Positions 17,943 to 59,172 of a stretch of DNA of 64,000 bases are shown in pieces (the stretch's first letter is position 1; every line of letters begins with the position of its first letter). The notes beneath the pieces were generated by a model that saw nothing but the letters and a program-made list of their open reading frames with translations, ran no database searches and had not been told where the DNA came from. Location: positions 18,624 through 82,623 of the forward strand of contig JAAZXM010000009.1 of the NCBI GenBank assembly GCA_014240165.1, given 5' to 3'. A program made the translations under genes and the position numbers. The DNA is from Myxococcales bacterium (GTDB lineage Bacteria > Myxococcota_A > UBA9160 > UBA4427).

Positions 17943-18419
17943 TCAGGCGGGGGACCGCTCTTTTTCTCGTTCGGCGGCCCGGGCGAAGAGTTCTTCGCTT
18001 CCCGAGCGCCAGCTGACATTGAGGGCGCTCCGGGCAATGCGCCACTGGCCCTCCTGGCGCAGCAGGTGCGTATCGTACCAACCCCCCAAAACGACGCGCT
18101 CGTCGCCGAGTCTGTGGCTGGCCTGGACGTTGGATGTGGCATGGGCCCGGTCCCCGTCCACTTCCACCAGGTGATTTCCGCTCAGGTGTTGAGTGGCGTC
18201 GAAGCCGGAGAGCCCGGCACGGACGCCCGCCACCCAGGTATCCAGGGGTAAGACGGCGGGCGGGTTGCCGTTCCAACTGGAGAGGTCGATTTCGACTTCT
18301 TCGCAAAAGCAAGCGCGGAAGAGATCCCAATCCCGTCGGTCGCATCCCGCCGCGTAGCGGTAAAGGACCTCGCTGATGGCCTGTTTGTCGATCAGGATCT
18401 GAACGGGCTCCGAACTCAT
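17943..18419 (-). CDS. NTF2-like / SnoaL-like domain protein
   Basis: MSSEPVQILIDKQAISEVLYRYAAGCDRRDWDLFRACF... is the typical SnoaL_4 N-terminus. ATG 18419. The upstream ORF extension is rejected. Confidence 0.7.
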   Translation of the reverse strand: MSSEPVQILIDKQAISEVLYRYAAGCDRRDWDLFRACFCEEVEIDLSSWNGNPPAVLPLDTWVAGVRAGLSGFDATQHLSGNHLVEVDGDRAHATSNVQASHRLGDERVVLGGWYDTHLLRQEGQWRIARSALNVSWRSGSEELFARAAEREKERSPA

Positions 18420-18691
18420 TGAAGATCTCCCCTCTCCTTGTGCGCGTTGCCGAATATCCGAACCCGGGCTTCCCAGGTGCGTTGCACCTTGCGAGCGACC
18501 CGAAGAGGGCGCTGGCGCAGGGGAAACAGTAACGGTTTGCAGGCGCTTTTCCCCCGATGTTCGGCGTGCTCGATCTGCATTGAGTCGTCCGCCGCACCCG
18601 GACGAGTCGTTCTTGAACTGCTCGCGGGGACCGGGGGGGGCCGCTATTTTCATGTTTTCCGGGTTCTGCTCGCCGAGAGATTGTTTTCAGA

Positions 18692-19558
18692 ATGACGCCT
18701 CCTTTCAAAAACAGGCCCATTGCGGGCGCGGGTCTCGGCCTGCGCAGCCCCCACTATGGGGACCTGATGGCTGGCGCCGCTGACGTCCCCTGGCTCGAGG
18801 TGCTGGCGGACAACTACGCCCACGGCGATGGTCTCCCGCTCTGGCATCTCGAAGGGATTCGCGAGCGATACCCCGTGGTCTTTCACGGAGTGGGACTGTC
18901 GCTCGGATCTGCGGACCCACTGGACTCGGCCTATCTCGATACGATCCTCGACCTCGCCCGCCGCTTCGAACCCGCCTGGTATTCCGAGCACCTGGCCTGG
19001 ACTGCTTCCGGGGGGCGTCATCACCACGAGCTGCTTCCGCTTCCCTTCATGGAGGAGACGGTGCAGACCCTGGTCGACCGGGTGGGGCAGGTTCAGGATC
19101 GTCTTGGCGAGCGCATGCTGGTGGAGAACTCGGCCGCTTATACGGCTTTCGATGCCTCGCATATGACCGAAGCGGAATTCGTCGGACGTGTTCTCGAAGA
19201 AGCGGACTGCTTCTTGCTTCTCGACGTCAACAATCTCTACGTCAACGCGCGCAATCATGCTTTCGACCCATTGGATTACCTGCGCGGCCTGCCGCCGCAT
19301 CGGGTCGCCCAGATGCATCTCGCCGGGCACGACGATCACGGCCATTACCTGGTGGACGCCCACGGAAGCGCGGTGGCCGAGCCGGTATGGGAACTTTACG
19401 CCGAGGCCGCGAGGCTCTTTCCCGGTGTGCCCGTTTGCGTCGAATGGGATCGGGAGGTCCCCGGCTTCGAAGTGCTGGTGGCTGAAATGCGTCGCGCGGG
19501 GCAGGCCATGAGGTTCGAGGAGCCGGACTCTGGGAAGGTCACCCCGCATGCTCCGTGA
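18692..19558 (+). CDS. DUF692-family multinuclear non-heme iron oxidative enzyme (MNIO; MbnB/BufB-like)
   Basis: 288 aa with DUF692 hallmarks GLGLRSPHY, HGVGLSLGS, WYSEHLAW, LVENSAAY, LLLDVNNLYVNARNH, MHLAGH and VEWD. Confidence 0.85.
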   Translation: MTPPFKNRPIAGAGLGLRSPHYGDLMAGAADVPWLEVLADNYAHGDGLPLWHLEGIRERYPVVFHGVGLSLGSADPLDSAYLDTILDLARRFEPAWYSEHLAWTASGGRHHHELLPLPFMEETVQTLVDRVGQVQDRLGERMLVENSAAYTAFDASHMTEAEFVGRVLEEADCFLLLDVNNLYVNARNHAFDPLDYLRGLPPHRVAQMHLAGHDDHGHYLVDAHGSAVAEPVWELYAEAARLFPGVPVCVEWDREVPGFEVLVAEMRRAGQAMRFEEPDSGKVTPHAP

Positions 19559-20390
19559 ACTCCAGGAAAAATTTTCTCGCGCGCTCTACGAAGAGGAATC
19601 GGCTGGCCCTCAGGCCCGCTCACTTCAAACTGAACTCTGCCCGCTGCCGAAGCTGTCGCCCGGGGAGAGCATTGATGTCTATCGAAGTTCCGTATCGAGC
19701 GTGTTCGAGGAAGCCCTCGCCGAGATTTTTCCCGTATGTCTCGAATTGGTCGGCGAGCCCTGTTTTTCCAGCGTTGCGCGTCTCTATCTCAGGGCGCGTC
19801 CCTCTCGGCACGCCGACCTGGCCCGGGTGGGGGACGAATGGCCGGATTTCGTGGAGACCCTGGCCTTCTTATCCGACGTGGCCTACCTGGCCGATGTCGG
19901 TCGCCTCGAATTGGGTCTGCACCATGCCCATGCTGCGCCGTGGCCGCCCCCCTTGAAGGATCCCCAGGCGCTGGGCGAAGCCATCGCCGGAGAGCCCGAA
20001 GCCTGGCGATTGCTTCTCTCGCCCTCCGCCACGCTCCTGGCATCGCCTTTCCCTGTCCTGACGCTCTGGGAAGCCCACCAGGATCGCCGAGTGGACCGCG
20101 GCTGGAAACTCGATCCGGCTGCGCCCGGGGAACAACTCGTCGTCTGTCGGCAAGGCGGCGATATCTACGCCGATCTCGTCGAGCCGAGCCTGTGGCCAAT
20201 CCTGCTCTCCATCGCGGCTGGGGAAAACGTGGCGCGGCAACTGGAACTGGCCGAGGGGCTACGGGCGTCTTCTCGAGATCAAGGCGATCTCAATTCTGAG
20301 AACTCGATGCCGATATTGACTACCATCCAGGCGCTCTTCGAAAGGGGCTGGGTGGTGGGTGGCGTGTCCGCGGCATCGCTCGAAGGATAG
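19548..20390 (+). CDS. DUF2063-family partner protein (BufC/MbnC-analogous RiPP recognition partner)
   Basis: 280 aa. Overlaps the MNIO gene by 11 nt. The N-terminal LQEKFSRALYEE...IDVYRSSVSSVFEEALAEIFP pattern is typical of DUF2063. Confidence 0.75.
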   Translation: MLRELQEKFSRALYEEESAGPQARSLQTELCPLPKLSPGESIDVYRSSVSSVFEEALAEIFPVCLELVGEPCFSSVARLYLRARPSRHADLARVGDEWPDFVETLAFLSDVAYLADVGRLELGLHHAHAAPWPPPLKDPQALGEAIAGEPEAWRLLLSPSATLLASPFPVLTLWEAHQDRRVDRGWKLDPAAPGEQLVVCRQGGDIYADLVEPSLWPILLSIAAGENVARQLELAEGLRASSRDQGDLNSENSMPILTTIQALFERGWVVGGVSAASLEG

Positions 20391-20441
20391 TGCGCTGCAG
20401 ATCGCGCGAATTTACGAAAACTGATCAAGGGAGAACCAAGC

Positions 20442-20732
20442 ATGAAGCGAACGGCGAATCGCACGGCATTTCAACTGGCCCTGGGTGGTGCTTTGACCCT
20501 GGGTCTTGCGAGCGCGGCTACCCAGGCGGAGGCCAAACCCACCTGGGAAGGGCATGAGAAGTGCTTCGGGGTTGCGAAGAAGGGCATGAACGATTGCCAT
20601 AATGCGGACCATCGCTGCGGCGGTCGGTCGAAGGAAAGCGGCGCCTCGAACGAGTGGGTCTACCTGCCCGAGGGCACCTGCGAAAAGATCGTCGGCGGTA
20701 GCCTTCAGCCCAAGAAGGCCTCGGCGGAATAA
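20442..20732 (+). CDS. DUF2282-family Sec-exported 4-cysteine peptide (bufferin-1-type RiPP precursor)
   Basis: 96 aa. Signal peptide ending AQAEA, core EKCFGVAKKGMNDCHNADHRCGG...WVYLPEGTCEKIVGG with Cys41/52/59/80. AAGGGAGA RBS. Confidence 0.8.
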   Translation: MKRTANRTAFQLALGGALTLGLASAATQAEAKPTWEGHEKCFGVAKKGMNDCHNADHRCGGRSKESGASNEWVYLPEGTCEKIVGGSLQPKKASAE

Positions 20733-20993
20733 CCGTCTCTGGATCCCGAGCCCCCGGGCTTTTCAGCCCAGGGGCTTCGGGCGTTCGGCTGGCTGAGCCC
20801 GGGGTCATGGGGATGGCCGAGTTCCACGGCGACGTCAGCCCGCATGGGCCCGCCCGTGGCGGATTGGGCAGTCGGGCAGAGACGGCGGCGCCCCGAGTTC
20901 GCTCTCGGGCGCTCCCAGGGCAGTTCCTAGCGGCTATCCTCGTCGCCGCTCCGTTTCTCTCGCCCCGGTTCCCGTTCTCCTGGAGGTCCTTCA

Positions 20994-23078
20994 TTGTCTG
21001 CGCTTTTTTCCGTTGTCGGGACGCGTTCCCTCGGCGGATCGATCTCTGCTTGGGCTCTCACGCTTCTGCTGAGCCTCGTGGCAGGAAACTCCGCTGCGCA
21101 TGCTTCCCCGGACGAGGCGGCGGATGACCCGGTTCGCGAAGAAATCATCGTGCAGGCGGGCCGAATCTCGACGCCGTTATTGGAGACTGCAGCCGCCATT
21201 GGTGTAGTGGGTCAGGAGGAGATCCAACTCGCGAGGCCCCAGCTGACCTTGGGCGAATCCCTTGCGCGGATTCCCGGCGTGTTCACCCAGGATCGGGAGA
21301 ATTTTGCCCAGGACCTTCGGGTCTCGATTCGCGGCTTTGGTTCCCGCGCCCGCTTTGGGCTGCGCGGTATCAAGCTCATCGTCGACGGGATTCCCGCCAC
21401 GCTTCCCGACGGTCAGGGCCAACTCGATACCCTGCAGTTGTCCACGGCGGGGAGGATCGAAGTTCTGCGCGGCCCTTCGGCATCGCTCTACGGAAGCGCT
21501 GCGGGCGGCGTCATCCGCGTGGAAAGCGAAGCCATAGGCGAAGGGACTTCGGCTGCGGGAAGAGCGGGGTTTGGGAGCAACGGCTACCGGAGTTACGACG
21601 CCAAGGCCACGGGCCGTGAGGGCTCGGTCGGGATTCTTCTGGGGCTCTCCCACCAGGAATTGGCGGGCTACCGCGACCACAGCCGGATGGAGAGCACGAT
21701 TCTCAACAGCCGGGCAGAGTGGCAAATCGATGAGGCCTCGGAACTCACGGCCCTTCTGAGTTTTGTTCACGCGCCGATTGCGGATGATCCGGGCGGGTTG
21801 AGAGCCTCTGAGGTGGCAGCGGATCGCCGTCAAGCCGCTCCGAATAACCTGCTCTTTGATGCGGGGGAGAGCCTTGACCAGGTCACAGCCGGTCTCCGCT
21901 ATACGCGCCGGAGTGGCGACAATCATGAGACCACGGGTGCGGCCTGGTATGGCTGGCGCGATTTCGCCAATCGCTTGCCCTTCGGAGATGTCAACGGGTC
22001 GCTCGATCGCAACTTTGCCGGGGCAAGCTTGCAGCATGAGTACACGGATGAATTGTTGGGCATGCCCAACTCGCTGCTCGTGGGTTTCGATGTCGAAGCC
22101 CAGCGGGACGACCGTATTCGCCGCGTAGGCGCCAACCCCACCCTGGACCAGGCCGAAGACGTGACCAGCCTGCGGGTCTTCATTCGCGATGAAGTGCAAC
22201 TGCCCCGTGATTTCGCCCTGGCTTTCTCATTGGGCTTCGACAACCTGCGCTACCGGGTGGACGATCATCTCTCCGGGGGCAGCGCTTCGGGGTCGGCGGA
22301 TTTCAGCGAATGGAGTCCTGCCCTTTCCTTCCGCTGGAATCCGCGCCAGGCTCTGAATCCCTACCTGCGGCTATCGACTTCCTTCGAGCCTCCCACGACA
22401 GTGGAGTTTCGCAATCCCACGGGCGCGGGCGGCCTCAACCCGAATCTCGATGCCCAGCGCGCGATCAACTACGAAGCGGGGGTCAAGGGCCTTCTGCCCG
22501 GGCGCCTGCGCTACGACCTTGCCGTCTACCATATTCGCACCGAGGACGAACTGATCCCCTATGAGGACGCTCTGGGGGAGACCTACTATCGGAATGCGGG
22601 CCGGACCGAGCGCACCGGTTTCGAGGCGATGCTCATCGCCGAGATCTACGAGGGCCTCAAGTTCACCGCTTCCTACACGTTCTCCAAGGCGCGTTTTACC
22701 GACTATGTGCTGGGGAGCGGGGAAAATCTCGTGGGCAAAAAGGTGCCGGGTATTCCCGAGAACACCTTTTACGCCGAACTCCTCTACCTGCATCCCACGG
22801 GCTTCTTTGCCGCCGTCGAGGGCCGAGCCGTGGGTGAGTTCTATGCCGATGATGCGAATGCCGTTCGTACCGAGGCCTACGGGGTGCTCGATTTTCGCAT
22901 GGGTTGGAAGGGTGATTGGGGTCGCTGGCGGCTGACCCCTTATCTCGCGGTGAGCAACCTGACGGATACGCTCTACAACGACAACGTGCGCCTGAATGCG
23001 GGCTTTGGTCGCTACTACGAACCAGCGGCGGGCGTGCAGGTTCAGGGTGGCCTGGGCCTTGCCTATCGCTTCGACTGA
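20994..23078 (+). CDS. TonB-dependent outer-membrane receptor
   Basis: 694 aa. Signal peptide, plug domain (RIPGVFTQDR..SIRGFGSR..GIKLIVDGIP..VLRGPSASLYG) and a barrel ending ..GLAYRF. TTG start with GGAGG RBS. Confidence 0.9.
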   Translation: MSALFSVVGTRSLGGSISAWALTLLLSLVAGNSAAHASPDEAADDPVREEIIVQAGRISTPLLETAAAIGVVGQEEIQLARPQLTLGESLARIPGVFTQDRENFAQDLRVSIRGFGSRARFGLRGIKLIVDGIPATLPDGQGQLDTLQLSTAGRIEVLRGPSASLYGSAAGGVIRVESEAIGEGTSAAGRAGFGSNGYRSYDAKATGREGSVGILLGLSHQELAGYRDHSRMESTILNSRAEWQIDEASELTALLSFVHAPIADDPGGLRASEVAADRRQAAPNNLLFDAGESLDQVTAGLRYTRRSGDNHETTGAAWYGWRDFANRLPFGDVNGSLDRNFAGASLQHEYTDELLGMPNSLLVGFDVEAQRDDRIRRVGANPTLDQAEDVTSLRVFIRDEVQLPRDFALAFSLGFDNLRYRVDDHLSGGSASGSADFSEWSPALSFRWNPRQALNPYLRLSTSFEPPTTVEFRNPTGAGGLNPNLDAQRAINYEAGVKGLLPGRLRYDLAVYHIRTEDELIPYEDALGETYYRNAGRTERTGFEAMLIAEIYEGLKFTASYTFSKARFTDYVLGSGENLVGKKVPGIPENTFYAELLYLHPTGFFAAVEGRAVGEFYADDANAVRTEAYGVLDFRMGWKGDWGRWRLTPYLAVSNLTDTLYNDNVRLNAGFGRYYEPAAGVQVQGGLGLAYRFD

Positions 23079-23506
23079 GGCGCTGGGGAAGGGGCGTCGC
23101 TCTGGCCCAGGAGTTCGGCCGCCCATGTCCCCACCTCGTCCCTGATTCTGCAAAACACGTCGAGAAGTTCCGCGCGATTCATCTCGGGGTAATCCGGATC
23201 CTCGAAGGCCCGGTGCAGGGTCCGCATGGCACCGGGGAATATCGGACAGGCCTCCTTCGCATCGTTGCAGACCGTGACCACCAGGTCGAAGTCCTGATCG
23301 GCATAAACGTCCACGTGATCCGAAGTCTGATCCCTGATATCGATGCCCCTCTCCGCCATGGCTTCGATGGCGAGCGGGTGAACGCCCTTGGGATCGGTGC
23401 CAGCGCTCCGCACTTCGAGCATGGGATGGCCCAGATGGCGAAGCCAGCCCTCGGCCATCTGGGACCGGGCGCGGTTGCCGGTGCAGATGACGAGAATCCG
23501 GTTCAG
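23063..23506 (-). CDS. arsC: LMW-PTP-family arsenate reductase (thioredoxin-coupled ArsC type), probable CTG start
   Basis: The ORF track starts at ATG 23458, but in-frame upstream codons encode LNRILVICTGNRARSQ, the CX5R P-loop. The downstream VTVCNDAKEACP Cys pair is present. No ATG/GTG/TTG is available upstream. Confidence 0.75.
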   Translation of the reverse strand: MNRILVICTGNRARSQMAEGWLRHLGHPMLEVRSAGTDPKGVHPLAIEAMAERGIDIRDQTSDHVDVYADQDFDLVVTVCNDAKEACPIFPGAMRTLHRAFEDPDYPEMNRAELLDVFCRIRDEVGTWAAELLGQSDAPSPAPQSKR

Positions 23507-23534
23507 TGGTCTTCCCTTTCGCTCCCCCAGCCCA

Positions 23535-25355
23535 TCAACCCTTTTCGATCCCTGCGAGGTCGCCTTTTGCGCGCCAATCCGCGAGCAGGCCGAAGAACTC
23601 CTGTGCGCCCCCGGCGTAGTTGCCTCCGAACCAGCCGGGCCCCTCTCCGGGTTTCCCCTCGTTGTTGTAATAGCCGGGCGTGCACTCGGTCTGAAAATCG
23701 GCCCTGGGATCAGCGCCCGCGGTGACGGTGCGCACCCAATCCGCCTCCGCCTGCTCGGAAGGGTCGAGGGTGGAGACGTCGCCCTTGATTCCCTGTTCGA
23801 TGATGTACGCGAGGTGTCGGCTCTGCTCGTTATAGAGTTCCATGAAATTGGGGGTCACCGCAGATTGCATGCCTCCCATGAAGAAACAGTTGGGGAAGCC
23901 CCTGCTCATCAGCCCCTGAAACGTGGAAACCCCGTCCGACCATTTTTCGGTCAGGCTCAACCCGCCCCGACCGGTGATCTCGCATGCGGCGCGCTGGGCA
24001 TAGTCGGTCCCGACCTCGAAGCCGGTGGCGAAGATCAGACAGTCCAACGGGTACTCCCGGCCCCCGGCCCATACCGAGTGCGGGGTGATTCGCTCCACGC
24101 CCTGGCCCTGGGTATCCACCAGGGTGACGTTGGGGCGGTTGAAGGTGGGCAGATAGTCGTCGTGGAAACAGGGGCGCTTGCAGAATTGCCGGTAATAGGG
24201 CTTCAAGGCTTCGGCGGTCTGCGGGTCTTCGACCGCGCCGGCGATGCGTGCCCGAATTGACTCCATCTTCTGAAAGTCCACGAGTTCGACATTGGCCGCG
24301 ATCTCTTCCGGGGAATTTCCCAGGCCCCCGCTCTCCTGGGCGAGTCCGGAGAGGTTGCGGATGATGTCGGTCCAGCCGTCGCTCACCAGATCTTCCGCCT
24401 GGAAGCCCCCCGAGACCAGGATGCTGAAATTCTCGATTCGCTCCTTTTGCCAACCGGGTGCGAGAGTAGAGGCCCATGCGGGATCCGTGGGCCGGTTCCC
24501 GCGAACGTCGATGGACGAAGGCGTGCGCTGGAAGACGTAGAGGTGCTCTGCGGATTTGCCCAGGTGGGGGATGCATTGCACCGCGGTGGCCCCGGTGCCG
24601 ATAATGCCGACGCGCTTGTCGCTGAGCCCGGAGAGCCCCCCGTTTGAGTCGCCTCCCGTGTAGGCGTAGTCCCAGCGACTGGTATGGAATGAGTGCCCCT
24701 CGAAACTCTCCACGCCCGGAATGCCGGGCAATTTGAGCCGGCTCAGGGGGCCGATCGCCATGCAGACGAAGCGCGCGCGAATGCGGTCGTTGCGCTGGGT
24801 GGAAAGGATCCAGCGCGCGCTCTCTTCATCCCATTGCATGGCGCTGACCCGGGTATGAAAACACGCGTCCCGGTAGAGATCATAGTGCCGGCCAATGGCC
24901 CGGCCGTGTTCCTGGATCTCCGCTCGATACGAGTATTTCTCTTTGGGGATATACCCGAGTTCCTCGAGCAGCGGGAGGTAGATATAGGATTCGATATCGC
25001 ATTGGGCCCCGGGATAGTGGTTCCAATACCAGGTCCCGCCGAAATCGCCCCCGGTTTCGATGATTCGGATGCGCTCGACACCCGCTTCACGCAGCCGCGC
25101 CGCGGCCAGGAGGCCACTGAACCCGCCTCCCACGATGGCGACCTCGACTTCGTCTTCCAGAGGGGCTCGCTGGAAACCCGGATCCGCCGACGGATCATCG
25201 AGGTAGCGCGCGAGTTCTCCGGAGGCCGTGCGATATTGGTCGTTGCCGTCATTTCGTGTGCGCTTGTCGCGCTCGCGTCGGTACTTCTCACGGAGGGCGT
25301 CGGGATCGAAATCCGGCGAGGGTTTCCGGGTGGTCGTGGCCGCTTCGCTGGTCAT
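23535..25355 (-). CDS. Baeyer-Villiger (type I flavin-containing) monooxygenase
   Basis: 606 aa. FAD motif VAIVGGGFSGL, GGTWYWNHYPGAQCD, BVMO fingerprint FEGHSFHTSRWD and a second Rossmann motif VGIIGTGATAVQ. Confidence 0.9.
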   Translation of the reverse strand: MTSEAATTTRKPSPDFDPDALREKYRRERDKRTRNDGNDQYRTASGELARYLDDPSADPGFQRAPLEDEVEVAIVGGGFSGLLAAARLREAGVERIRIIETGGDFGGTWYWNHYPGAQCDIESYIYLPLLEELGYIPKEKYSYRAEIQEHGRAIGRHYDLYRDACFHTRVSAMQWDEESARWILSTQRNDRIRARFVCMAIGPLSRLKLPGIPGVESFEGHSFHTSRWDYAYTGGDSNGGLSGLSDKRVGIIGTGATAVQCIPHLGKSAEHLYVFQRTPSSIDVRGNRPTDPAWASTLAPGWQKERIENFSILVSGGFQAEDLVSDGWTDIIRNLSGLAQESGGLGNSPEEIAANVELVDFQKMESIRARIAGAVEDPQTAEALKPYYRQFCKRPCFHDDYLPTFNRPNVTLVDTQGQGVERITPHSVWAGGREYPLDCLIFATGFEVGTDYAQRAACEITGRGGLSLTEKWSDGVSTFQGLMSRGFPNCFFMGGMQSAVTPNFMELYNEQSRHLAYIIEQGIKGDVSTLDPSEQAEADWVRTVTAGADPRADFQTECTPGYYNNEGKPGEGPGWFGGNYAGGAQEFFGLLADWRAKGDLAGIEKG

Positions 25356-33727: not shown

Positions 33728-33803
33728 TGGCTCCCCGGGTAGGACTTGAACCTACGACAAGGCGGTTAACAGCCGCCTGCTCTACCAGCTGAGCTACCGG
33801 GGA
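33728..33803 (-). tRNA. tRNA-Asn (GTT)
   Basis: Manual cloverleaf: TCCCCGG-TA-GCTC..GAGC-A-GGCGG-CTGTTAA-CCGCC-TTGTC-GTAGG-TTCAAGT-CCTAC-CCGGGGA-G-CCA. CCA is encoded. Confidence 0.9.
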
Positions 33804-36910: not shown

Positions 36911-36987
<77 letters not shown>

Positions 36988-51523: not shown

Positions 51524-53698
51524 TCAGCCCCCGCTGGTGCTCCCGATAAATAGCATGAAGAGCCAGGCCAGGATTTCGTAGGCCGCGGTCTTGATGGTGG
51601 TCCACCAGCCGGGTTCCTCGCGCAGGGCGCGGTCTTCATGGGCCTTCTCGATGACGAAGCCCTGGAGCGCCTCGACGTCGGCGGCGCTCAAGACGTCGCC
51701 AAAGCCGGGCATGCCGCGGCTCTCCAGGGCTCCATGGCGAACGATGGCCTGGAAATTGGCGTGGGCGCTCGCGGGGATGTGCCGGAGATCGGGGATCGAC
51801 CCCCCGCCCACCACGCCCGCGCCGTGGCAGAAGGAGCAGTAGTTCGCGTAGACGGCGCCGCCTCGGGCCAGGGCCGCCTCGGACAGTTCCATGAGGGGCG
51901 GCGGAGGCGGGATGGGTTTGGGGTCCGGGCGTTCGGGCAATTGGGCCTCGCCCCCCAATTTGAAAGCCAAGAGCCTCCCCTGAGCGGGGCGGCTGTCGGG
52001 CTTGAAGCCCGATGTGAGCCCGAAGGATCCGCCCCAGCCCGCCAGAACCGCGACGTATTGTTCCCCTTCGGCCATATAGGTGATGGGCGAAGCGATGACT
52101 CCGGTCTGGGTAGGAAAGCGCCAGAGCGGTTCGCCGTCTTGGGACCGGTAGGCGAGGAACGCGCCCTCGCCGCTGCCGTGAAAGAGCAGGCCGCTCGCGG
52201 TGGAGAGTACGCCGCCATTCCACGCCCTGGGGTAGGAGATCTGCCAGGCGGCCTTCTCTTCCCGGGGATTCCACGCCAGCAATCCGCCGGCGATCAAGCG
52301 ACCCTGGAGCACGCTGAGGAAGAGGGCATTGCCCGGGGGATTGTCACGGCGGTCGACCCCCACGTTGCGCAGCCCCCGCTCGATCTCCAAGGGCTCCCGG
52401 GCTTTGTAGGTGAAGAGCGAATCGATCACCGGGATGAAGACGAGGCCGAGTGCCGGGTCGTAGGCCATGGGCTGCCAGTTGTGCCCGCCGACACTGGCGG
52501 GCCGCACCGTGGCGCTTCCCTCGGCGTAGTCCTGCCCGGGGTTCTCCACCGGGCGCCCGGTCTTCAAGTCGTAGTGGCTGGCCCAGGTCACCTCGACATA
52601 GGGCTCCGCCGAAAGCAATTCGCCGGTCTCGCGATCCAGGACCATGAAGAAGCCGCTCTTGGGGGCCTGCATCAGGACCTTGCGCGTCCGGCCCTGCCAT
52701 TCCAGGTCGGCGAGGATCATGTGCTGGGTGGCGGTGTAGTCCCAGGTTTCTGCGGGAACGACCTGGTAATGCCATACGTACTCGCCGGTCGCCGGGCGCA
52801 GGGCGACGATGGAAGCGAGAAAAAGGTTGTCTCCGCCTTCGGGGCTGCGCAGCCGACGATTCCAGGGGCTGCCGTTGCCCACGCCGATATAGAGCAGGTC
52901 GAGTTCGGGGTCGTACGCCATGGAGTCCCAGACGGTTCCCCCCCCGCCGAGTTTCCACCATTCGCCGGTCCATGTTTCGGCGATGCGTCTTTGCACATCG
53001 TCTTCGAAACCGTCCGCCGGATTCCCCGGTACGGTGTAGAAGCGCCAGATGTGTTCGCCGGTTTCACTCGAATAGGCATCGAGGTAACCGCGTACGCCGT
53101 ACTCGGCACCCGAGTTGCCGATCAGGACATGGCCACGCACGACCCGGGGTGCGCCGGTGATGGAGTAGGGTTGGTCCGAGTCGACGGTCTGTACGCTCCA
53201 CGCCACCTGGCCGCTCTTGGCGTTCAGGGCAATCAGGCGGCCGTCCAGGGTGCCGACGAAGATTTTGCCCCGCCAGGCGGCGACGCCCCGGTTTACGACG
53301 TCGCAGCAGATTTTCCGCGCCACCGCCCGAGGAACCTGGGGGTCGTGGCGCCAGAGAAGCCGGCCGCTGGCACCATCCACGGCGTAGACCACGCTCCAGG
53401 TTCCCGTGAAATAGAGGACGCCGTCCACCGCCAGGGGCGTGGCCTCGAGGCCGCGTCGAGTGCCGAGATCCAGCGACCAGGCGAGGCCGAGATCGTCGAT
53501 ATTGTCCGGCCGGATTGCAGTCAGGGGGCTGTGGCGCTCTTCGGCGTAGCTTCGTCCGTGGGTCAACCAATTGCCGGGCTCATCGTCCGGGCGCACGAGG
53601 CGCTGGTGATCGATGCCGGTTGTCTCCGCCAGGGATGCGTGGAGCGGCACGCATAAAAGGCCGACAAGCCCGGCGAGGATCGAAAGTCGAAGCGGCAT
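51524..53698 (-). CDS. PQQ-dependent quinohemoprotein alcohol dehydrogenase (type II-like) with C-terminal cytochrome c domain
   Basis: ATG 53698 (signal MPLRLSILAGLVGLLCVPLHASLA). Eight-bladed W-motif propeller, vicinal Cys pair KICCDVVNRG and heme site CSFCHG. The 887-aa extension is rejected. Confidence 0.9.
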   Translation of the reverse strand: MPLRLSILAGLVGLLCVPLHASLAETTGIDHQRLVRPDDEPGNWLTHGRSYAEERHSPLTAIRPDNIDDLGLAWSLDLGTRRGLEATPLAVDGVLYFTGTWSVVYAVDGASGRLLWRHDPQVPRAVARKICCDVVNRGVAAWRGKIFVGTLDGRLIALNAKSGQVAWSVQTVDSDQPYSITGAPRVVRGHVLIGNSGAEYGVRGYLDAYSSETGEHIWRFYTVPGNPADGFEDDVQRRIAETWTGEWWKLGGGGTVWDSMAYDPELDLLYIGVGNGSPWNRRLRSPEGGDNLFLASIVALRPATGEYVWHYQVVPAETWDYTATQHMILADLEWQGRTRKVLMQAPKSGFFMVLDRETGELLSAEPYVEVTWASHYDLKTGRPVENPGQDYAEGSATVRPASVGGHNWQPMAYDPALGLVFIPVIDSLFTYKAREPLEIERGLRNVGVDRRDNPPGNALFLSVLQGRLIAGGLLAWNPREEKAAWQISYPRAWNGGVLSTASGLLFHGSGEGAFLAYRSQDGEPLWRFPTQTGVIASPITYMAEGEQYVAVLAGWGGSFGLTSGFKPDSRPAQGRLLAFKLGGEAQLPERPDPKPIPPPPPLMELSEAALARGGAVYANYCSFCHGAGVVGGGSIPDLRHIPASAHANFQAIVRHGALESRGMPGFGDVLSAADVEALQGFVIEKAHEDRALREEPGWWTTIKTAAYEILAWLFMLFIGSTSGG

Positions 53699-53781
53699 AC
53701 CCGGCAGATTTCCCGGACCACACCCAGGAACTCGCTTTTTACGAGGCCTTATGGCCGAAGCGGCGAAAGTTGTCGCGTCGT

Positions 53782-54600
53782 TCACCGCTCGTCGTCGAGG
53801 AATTGAAGCACGATTTGGTTGAAGCGTTCGGCGGACTCCACCATCACCAGATGACCCCCGTAGTTCAAGCTGACCATTCGGGAGTCCGGCAGGAGTTGGT
53901 CGATTTCGCGGAGGAATTTGGGCGGGGTCAGGATATCGTTCCGCCCGCAGAGCAGCAGCGTCGGATGTTCCAACGCCGACAGGCGCGTCGAGGTGTCGTG
54001 CGCCGCGCAGGCCTGGCATTGGCGGATGAAGAGATCTGCCGAGAAGGGGGCGCCTTCCTTGCGATAGAAGTCGGTCATCGCCTGGATCAGGTCGCTCTGC
54101 TCGATGGTGTCTTCGTGCAGTGTCCAGAGCAGCCGGTTGTAGATGAAGGTTTCGGTGGAGAGGCCCATGCCCACGAGTTCGGCCCAATGCTTGAGCAGCA
54201 TCAGGCGCTTCTTGTCCGGGCGTGCATAGGTGCCCACCAGGATCAGTCGCTCGACACGGTCAGGAGCGAGCAACGCCAGTTCCTGGGCCGTCATGCCGCC
54301 CATGAAGGGGCCCAGCACGTCGGCCTTTTCCACCTCGAGGCAGTCGAGCAGGCCGAGGGCATCCTGGGCCAGGTCCCGAGTGGTAAAGGGCTCGCCCGTA
54401 TCCTCGCTCTCGCCCACGCCGAGATGATCGAAGATGATCACCGGACGCGTCGGGGCGAAGTCGGGCATCTGGAGGGGCAACCAGCCGGCGCATGAGCCCG
54501 CCATGCCCATGATGAGCAAGAGCGGCCGGGCGCCGTCGGACTCGAGGTCACCGTGGCATTCGTAGTAGAGTTTTCGGCCAGCGAGATCAGCGAAAGGCAT
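53782..54600 (-). CDS. Alpha/beta-fold protein (enol-lactonase-like) with Phe at the nucleophile position (GPFMGG)
   Basis: 272 aa. The elbow reads DVLGPFMGGMTAQELA (GGC CCC TTC ATG GGC GGC at 54312-54295). Asp (GRNDILTP) and His (YGGHLVMVE) are retained. Confidence 0.75.
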   Translation of the reverse strand: MPFADLAGRKLYYECHGDLESDGARPLLLIMGMAGSCAGWLPLQMPDFAPTRPVIIFDHLGVGESEDTGEPFTTRDLAQDALGLLDCLEVEKADVLGPFMGGMTAQELALLAPDRVERLILVGTYARPDKKRLMLLKHWAELVGMGLSTETFIYNRLLWTLHEDTIEQSDLIQAMTDFYRKEGAPFSADLFIRQCQACAAHDTSTRLSALEHPTLLLCGRNDILTPPKFLREIDQLLPDSRMVSLNYGGHLVMVESAERFNQIVLQFLDDER

Positions 54601-58876: not shown

Positions 58877-59008
58877 GTGTGCCGAGGGGAGACCGCAGGG
58901 CGACCCCACCCGCAGCCGAATTCCTGCTACGGCTGCTTCCTTCCGGATCTGACCGGGTTCACAGGGTCCCGAACTCGAGCGGGACCCTGCGGTCCGCCCT
59001 CGGCACAC
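58877..59008 (-). ncRNA. ffs: Signal recognition particle RNA (4.5S, ffs)
   Basis: The minus strand contains the domain IV core GGUCAGAUCCGGAAGGAAGCAGCCGUAGCAGG. It is closed by the long terminal helix GUGUGCCGAGGG...CCCUCGGCACAC. The position upstream of dnaX is the conserved one. Confidence 0.85.

Positions 59009-59079: not shown

Positions 59080-59172
<93 letters not shown>

Follow-up and report, generated by a model that had tools for sequence, protein, structure and literature searches.

What is encoded by the small open reading frame (ORF) that follows two genes for putative peptide-modifying enzymes, and what becomes of its product, are the questions raised by this locus. The DNA analysed, called the window hereafter, is the whole stretch of 64,000 nucleotides. 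The ORF, here denoted bufA, runs on the + strand from the ATG at 20442 to the TAA at 20730-20732, and includes 96 codons. The 96 aa product features cysteines at residues 41, 52, 59 and 80, and histidines at residues 38, 53 and 57; a core of 65 aa is left after the predicted cut AEA31|K32. Length, cysteine positions and core size are exactly those stated in the original prediction, in which the gene had been proposed to encode an exported precursor of a modified peptide. A Shine-Dalgarno sequence, AAGGGAG (20427..20433, + strand), is located 8 nt 5' of the ATG, and equivalent AAGGAG or AAGGGAG motifs are found in relatives. The GC content at the three codon positions (0.60/0.53/0.73) is like that of the neighbouring genes, and dN/dS ratios of 0.07-0.14, measured at dS ~1 against relatives with 75-83% identity, show that the gene is under strong purifying selection. 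bufA is a real gene, far above a chance ORF. The identical protein is encoded by at least 11 marine metagenome contigs, Tara Oceans assemblies included, and is present in NCBI, JGI, ENA and Logan, where it had been called by standard gene callers and carries the PF10048 domain. The worry that annotation pipelines would easily miss such a gene was therefore misplaced. The sole public name, 'uncharacterized membrane protein', is uninformative, though.

BufA matches the Pfam profile PF10048 (DUF2282/BufA1) with E=3.7e-21 and 75.3 bits, against a gathering cutoff of 22.4 bits. The match covers HMM positions 2-53 of 53 and spans residues 39-88, which bears out the assignment to DUF2282/BufA1 made earlier; the same domain is carried by 53/53 BufA homologues. 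In the alignment with DUF2282 sequences proposed together with the original prediction, the cysteine spacing of BufA (10-6-20) was common to at least 41 of 51 relatives, all members of the PF10048 family. The four cysteines and His57 are invariant in an alignment of 26 sequences (A1), and kept in nearly all the members of a larger alignment of 51 sequences (A2). BufA also falls within the size and cysteine definition of the Buf1 family, 80-120 residues with four conserved cysteines (PMC11626156).

The 5' part of the gene (20442..20534, + strand) encodes residues 1-31, MKRTANRTAFQLALGGALTLGLASAATQAEA, and the remainder (20535..20732, + strand) the core peptide, residues 32-96, and the stop codon. 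Judged by rules, BufA bears a predicted Sec-type signal peptide. The n-region carries K2, R3 and R7, residues 9-24 form a hydrophobic stretch (Kyte-Doolittle mean up to 1.7), and A-E-A occupies positions -3/-1 of the predicted cleavage site. Neither a lipobox nor a twin-arginine motif was seen upon rule-based inspection of the N-terminus. The signal peptides proper drift among relatives, while the A-x-A|KPTWEGHEKC junction is kept across the alignment. The signal peptide with an AxA site claimed earlier thus conforms to the rules, and has a conserved A-E-A junction.

The two genes preceding bufA on the same strand encode the presumptive modifying enzymes, and the link to them drawn in the original prediction is upheld by the profile scores of both. 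The first, bufB (18692..19558, + strand), encodes an MNIO (DUF692) bufferin maturase of 288 aa, which matches PF05114 with 329.5 bits and the NCBIfam model NF050167 (MNIO_BufB) with 326.3 bits, and passes the equivalog cutoff of 310. Scores were under the cutoffs of the HvfB, ApyH, ChrH and MbnB models. BufB keeps the conserved His/Glu/Asp/Asn motifs of the MNIO family, found as FHG64, SEHL98, VEN144, DVNN178, HLAGH209 and VEWD250; the nearest solved structure is that of the DUF692 protein 3BWW (E=2e-41), with TglH and MbnB next in rank. The second gene, bufC (19548..20390, + strand), overlaps bufB by 11 nt and encodes a putative DUF2063 partner protein (PME1 type) of 280 aa. PF09836 is matched over residues 4-102 with 64.5 bits (cutoff 27.2), and it is from this Pfam DUF2063 match by itself that the PME1/DUF2063 assignment is predicted. 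No match to a 3DEE-like PME1 was obtained by phmmer or by a 22-sequence profile. An RRE-like C-terminal domain, considered as a candidate, was likewise unconfirmed by phmmer, by the 22-sequence profile and by a single-sequence AF2 model of BufC, which had a pLDDT of 37. No second copies of bufA, bufB or bufC are found within the 64-kb window.

The three genes are adjacent on the + strand, and the gap between bufC and bufA measures 51 nt. Some 40-50 nt 5' of bufB is a conserved box, GGCCGCTATTTTCATG (18639..18654, + strand), unique in the window and including a candidate -10-type element (TATTTT/TAATTT). Boxes of the CGCTAATTT type are found at the same relative position in six related loci (L016, L017, L019, L020, L005, L001), and the GGCCGCTA(A/T)TTT box is probably the -10 element for bufBCA. 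In more distant loci of the same gene order (L015, L022, L023, L024, L027) a CCACTCTATCCC box is located instead beside the start of the divergent SnoaL gene. The intergenic region between SnoaL and bufB contains -10-like boxes only, and no palindrome of the Fur, Zur or CueR-like type; no Rfam regulatory RNA was found near the bufBCA locus, and a consensus promoter and terminator scan around bufA gave nothing meaningful.

At the opposite end, a GC-rich stem-loop (20748..20777, + strand; 12 bp stem with one mismatch, loop UUUC) is located 16 nt 3' of the bufA stop codon. Folding of the 106-nt stretch which holds the hairpin gave -57.2 kcal/mol (z=-2.47). The hairpin in the window is not followed by a U-tract and is missed by the consensus terminator scan. 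Hairpins differing in sequence are found at the equivalent place in nearly all the loci of the same gene order, and are followed by U-tails in L017, L019 and L012. The element is a probable operon-end terminator or 3' stabiliser, and its occurrence 3' of bufA across the clade suggests that the bufBCA operon most likely ends at bufA. The spacer between bufC and bufA is larger in three relatives, where it measures 112-128 nt (L016:4980-5107, L018:5872-6000, L005:3879-3991) as it is enlarged by A-rich direct repeats (AACCTAAATCAAAAAAA). These repeats, absent from the 51-nt spacer of the window, may act as a promoter inside the operon, or represent an insertion with a regulatory role.

By analogy to the characterised members of the family, bufA very probably encodes the precursor of a Buf1-type bufferin (captophorin), made by a bufBCA operon and acting as a periplasmic copper chelator through thiooxazoles and a disulfide. 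The features that define a Buf1 precursor and are open to in silico testing (profile, cysteines, signal peptide, size, fold, partners) were all found, and the locus is an ordinary, uncharacterised Buf1 member of a known family, varying slightly in its operon. The gene with the family to which it belongs, the genes for the enzymes, the arrangement of the operon and the conservation are read directly from the DNA, and the modification, export, metal and physiological role of BufA may be modelled by homology on Buf1 of Caulobacter vibrioides. In the latter, CysII and CysIII are converted into 5-thiooxazoles, and CysI and CysIV are joined by a disulfide, for a net change of -10 Da. BufB and BufC are both required for the thiooxazoles and suffice for them, DoxX being dispensable; cleavage of the Sec signal peptide takes place where predicted, and the periplasm is where the product builds up. 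Cu(II) is bound at a 2N2S site with a KD of ~6e-15 M, and Cu(I) still more tightly, with a KD of ~7e-20 M; copper binding protects the cells from copper (PMC11626156). The 5-thiooxazole assignment has been upheld across MNIO/DUF2063 systems, now also named captophorins (PMC13097082).

By homology, the iron-dependent oxidase BufB and the DUF2063 partner BufC would turn Cys52 and Cys59 of BufA into 5-thiooxazoles in the cytoplasm. The modified peptide would then be exported by Sec and cleaved by signal peptidase after Ala31, and a Cys41-Cys80 disulfide would tie beta-strand 1 to the short helix at the C-terminus. The mature 65-residue peptide is predicted to have a monoisotopic mass of 7018.23 Da, which corresponds to the mass of the core minus 10.08 Da. 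It would remain in the periplasm and chelate copper via the S and N atoms of the thiooxazoles, possibly assisted by His57 and His53. No family of MNIO-modified RiPPs known so far is larger than that of the bufferins, which provide a widespread mechanism of copper defence that was recognised only recently; the bufBCA locus extends them into uncultured marine Myxococcota. Neither copper-homeostasis genes, nor DoxX, nor SigF/NrsF-type sigma/anti-sigma genes were found in the 64-kb window, and the context thus gives no pointer to copper specifically.

The fold was modelled by AF2 from 51 sequences, with a pLDDT of 84-92 in the core (residues ~31-90). In the model, residues 38-42, which include Cys41, and residues 72-76 form strands, and residues 80-82, which include Cys80, a short helix. 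The predicted fold agrees with BufA1 as described in the literature, where a sheet of two strands is accompanied by some helix, and a disulfide joins the first strand to a short helix (PMC11626156). Relatives of solved structure were found neither by sequence nor by a Foldseek search of the PDB (best E=1.4).

The histidines in the central region of BufA had been regarded as extra residues, a view that holds for one of them. His57, in the motif H-x-CysIII, is found in 49/51 relatives, among them members of gammaproteobacterial and cyanobacterial clusters in the canonical bufABC order, and is therefore a trait of the subfamily and not an addition; His38 is present in 24/51. His53, located right after CysII, occurs in 10/51 relatives, essentially the closest clade, and alone among the histidines of BufA is lineage-specific. 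Since His53 and His57 flank predicted thiooxazole sites, they could plausibly serve as extra metal ligands. The loop between CysII and CysIII measures 6 residues in BufA and 7 in P0053, the single relative of Caulobacter type among those compared. The shorter loop and the two histidines suggest that the metal site of BufA may differ from that of Caulobacter Buf1.

Comparison with known systems places BufA closest to BufA1 of C. vibrioides (CCNA_03363) and to the gig operon precursor from Cupriavidus metallidurans, which belong to the same Pfam family (PMC11626156, PMC12452194). Shared features are the Sec signal peptide (here predicted), a four-Cys core of ~65 residues, a predicted two-strand-plus-helix fold and the maturase pair formed by the MNIO BufB and the DUF2063 protein BufC. 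In contrast to the A-B-C(-D) clusters of these bacteria, the window features the order B-C-A, lacks DoxX (BufD) and SigF/NrsF-type regulators nearby, and derives from an uncultured marine Myxococcota lineage; the CysII-CysIII loop with His53 and His57 is a further difference from Caulobacter Buf1. Bufferin 2 (BufA2, Buf_6/12Cys) shares with BufA the signal peptide, modification by MNIO/DUF2063 enzymes and periplasmic copper chelation (here predicted), as well as a cluster devoid of DoxX, but BufA2 features six cysteines with Cys-Lys motifs. Identity with BufA2 was rejected, because the window peptide has four cysteines, not six, and scores 27 bits with the NCBIfam model NF050166 (cutoff 60).

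In the EGKCG captophorins, oxazolin/HvfA of H. influenzae, gonophorin and fontiphorin, MNIO and PME1 (DUF2063) enzymes install 5-thiooxazoles at cysteines; EGKCG repeats and many modified cysteines are present, and copper binding is thought to be disordered (PMC11252979, PMC13097082). MNIO and PME1-type enzymes, a copper-related function and a Sec-exported precursor, the latter two here predicted, are common to both. Unlike the EGKCG captophorins, the window peptide contains no EGKCG repeat, and a small folded protein is predicted. This identity was discarded given the lack of tandem EGKCG repeats, and the scores of BufB with the HvfB model (248.6 bits, cutoff 360) and of BufC with the HvfC model, a weak match (23 bits, cutoff 142). 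Methanobactin systems (MbnA/MbnB/MbnC/MbnT) have in common with the locus copper ligands made by an MNIO as Cys-derived heterocycle/thio groups (here predicted) and a TonB receptor in the neighbourhood; their precursors feature a leader peptide, and are secreted and re-imported via MbnT. BufB scores 37.1 bits with the MbnB model (cutoff 325), its partner is a DUF2063 protein and not MbnC, and the receptor is PqqU/YncD-like, and identity with methanobactins was rejected as well.

The position of the precursor gene 3' of both enzyme genes (bufB-bufC-bufA) is the one atypical feature of the locus, and had gone unmentioned in the original prediction. The order bufABC has been described as 'strictly conserved' (PMC12452194). 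Order A-B-C and DoxX (BufD) are the features of Buf1 loci missing from the window; both are typical, but non-essential. The alignment of the BufA subfamily served to retrieve 80 genome loci at species level, in which gene order was surveyed. The order A-B-C was found in 51/80, 15 of which include DoxX, and the order B-C-A in 12/80, with a BufA identity to the window of 55-83%. In 17/80 loci bufA is not adjacent to an MNIO gene, and in 12 of these it is found beside DoxX. Among metagenome contigs, P0003, P0005, P0012 and P0015 feature the order B-C-A, P0023 and P0037 the canonical one. In bufA-DoxX loci (L047, L051, L053, L056, L067, L071, L075, L077, L078, L086, L094, L095), MNIO and DUF2063 genes are absent within 6 kb. 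Two loci in canonical order (L013:5220-8582 and L014:1289-4651) contain two tandem BufA1 genes, a fused MNIO-DUF2063 (BufB-BufC) gene product of ~578 aa, and DoxX.

When 65 BufB proteins were placed in a tree by neighbour joining, the 17 enzymes from B-C-A loci formed one clade in 100/100 bootstraps, which suggests that the rearrangement happened once and was then kept. Twelve species-level genomes and many marine metagenome contigs contain the B-C-A unit, with dN/dS ratios of 0.07-0.33, and bufA and bufBC are inherited together throughout the clade. DoxX is found neither within the window nor in any B-C-A locus, and no B-C-A locus includes a sigma/anti-sigma pair such as that beside P0023. 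On sequence grounds, the order B-C-A is a coherent, monophyletic exception to the bufABC rule, and is what is new here; a search of literature and supplements yielded no earlier account of a DUF2282 cluster in which the precursor comes last, or of an association with a TonB receptor. B-C-A clusters would be scored wrongly by genome-mining pipelines that, as in PMC12452194, accept the precursor only upstream of the MNIO gene; each cluster would read as an "MNIO without precursor" plus a "stand-alone precursor". The variant is a modest change of architecture, of practical interest for the rules of genome mining.

B-C-A loci are mostly labelled as marine Myxococcota MAGs, but also as 'Deltaproteobacteria', 'Geobacter sp.', and, in some MAGs, as Spirochaetaceae. 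Three MAGs titled 'uncultured Spirochaetaceae' carry the cluster (L021, L023, L024). L021 shares the synteny of the window (DUF5690, SH3, CoA-transferase and TPR genes; 56-84% identity) with MAGs labelled as Myxococcota, and its label, at least, thus looks unreliable.

The chemistry predicted for BufA might serve a job other than defence from copper. The CHNADHRC loop could retune the site for Zn, Ni or Co, or the peptide could provide cuproenzymes of the periplasm or membrane with copper where it is scarce. The restriction of His53 to the closest clade, next to a His57 kept beside CysIII in most relatives, is consistent with such a change, as is the lack, in the B-C-A clade, of DoxX and of the metal-stress regulators of canonical clusters. 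Copper excess is moreover unlikely in the open ocean, from which the metagenomes originate, and the literature already mentions fusions to MerC and the possibility of roles involving other metals. However, His57 is not specific to the clade, being found also in many canonical bufABC clusters, neither a cuproenzyme nor a metal transporter is encoded in the neighbourhood, and the case is drawn purely from sequence; a different job is accordingly regarded as rather unlikely. About equally doubtful is the broader idea that the bufBCA clade is a functionally distinct bufferin branch, which in seawater poor in metals would handle trace metals constitutively or deal with another metal in place of copper, rather than buffer copper stress. 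It may be put forward because the clade is monophyletic, has neither DoxX nor stress regulators, features a short CysII-CysIII loop flanked by histidines, and resides in marine Myxococcota.

A TonB-dependent receptor gene (20994-23078, + strand) starts 261 nt 3' of bufA, and the bufferin might work with its product, either as a chalkophore-like uptake pair, as do methanobactin and MbnT, or as the periplasmic acceptor of an imported metal. The receptor is encoded directly 3' of bufA in the window and in 7/12 B-C-A genome loci, with 53-73% identity, but is missing from four others (L022, L024-L026) and from the metagenome contig L015. Genes for DUF5690, SH3, CoA-transferase and TPR proteins are equally kept in synteny, so the adjacency may simply be inherited, and the conserved hairpin separates bufA from the receptor gene. 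The nearest relatives of the receptor are PqqU and YncD (E ~1e-91), OprC, MbnT and CrtA not being among them, a PQQ-dependent dehydrogenase is encoded elsewhere in the window, and Sec export would take BufA only as far as the periplasm. A partnership with the receptor is thus very improbable, and a link to copper uptake was rejected on the grounds of the PqqU/YncD-like sequence, the intervening hairpin, the wider synteny and the absences in the clade. Less probable still is that BufA, as a small secreted Cys/His protein free of modification or as a membrane protein, just happens to be encoded beside an MNIO gene. The public name would favour a membrane protein, but the sole hydrophobic segment of BufA is the predicted cleavable signal peptide. 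Published surveys report many DUF2282 genes devoid of an adjacent MNIO gene, as are the 17/80 loci mentioned above; here bufA is co-oriented with the enzyme genes, 51 nt away from them, and co-inherited with bufBC across the clade, and BufB and BufC of the characterised system act on exactly the DUF2282/BufA1 family (PMC11626156). A copper-binding bufferin of the Buf1 type is the preferred reading of the locus.

The best NCBIfam match of the receptor is PqqU, with 379 bits, far under the equivalog cutoff of 1200, and the protein is probably unrelated to the bufferin system. The PQQ-dependent enzyme is a quinohemoprotein dehydrogenase with a C-terminal cytochrome c domain (51524-54187, - strand), encoded ~30 kb from the receptor; the pair suggests import of PQQ for a quinohemoprotein, and no pqq biosynthesis genes came to notice in passing. 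A SnoaL_4 (NTF2-like) gene (17943-18419, - strand), divergent from bufB, is found in 10/12 B-C-A genome loci with 42-80% identity. It accompanies most of the clade, and nothing ties it functionally to the bufferin system. Genes for a LMW phosphatase/ArsC-like protein and a flavin (Baeyer-Villiger-type) monooxygenase (23063-25355, - strand) reside between the receptor and the CoA-transferase genes. In L021 and L027 the CoA-transferase gene is located ~100 bp after the receptor gene, and the two genes therefore seem to have been inserted in the lineage of the window only. Genes for tRNA-Asn (33728-33803), tRNA-Pro (36911-36987) and tRNA-Ser (59081-59172), all on the - strand, and for a small SRP RNA (58891-58991, - strand) are also present in the window.
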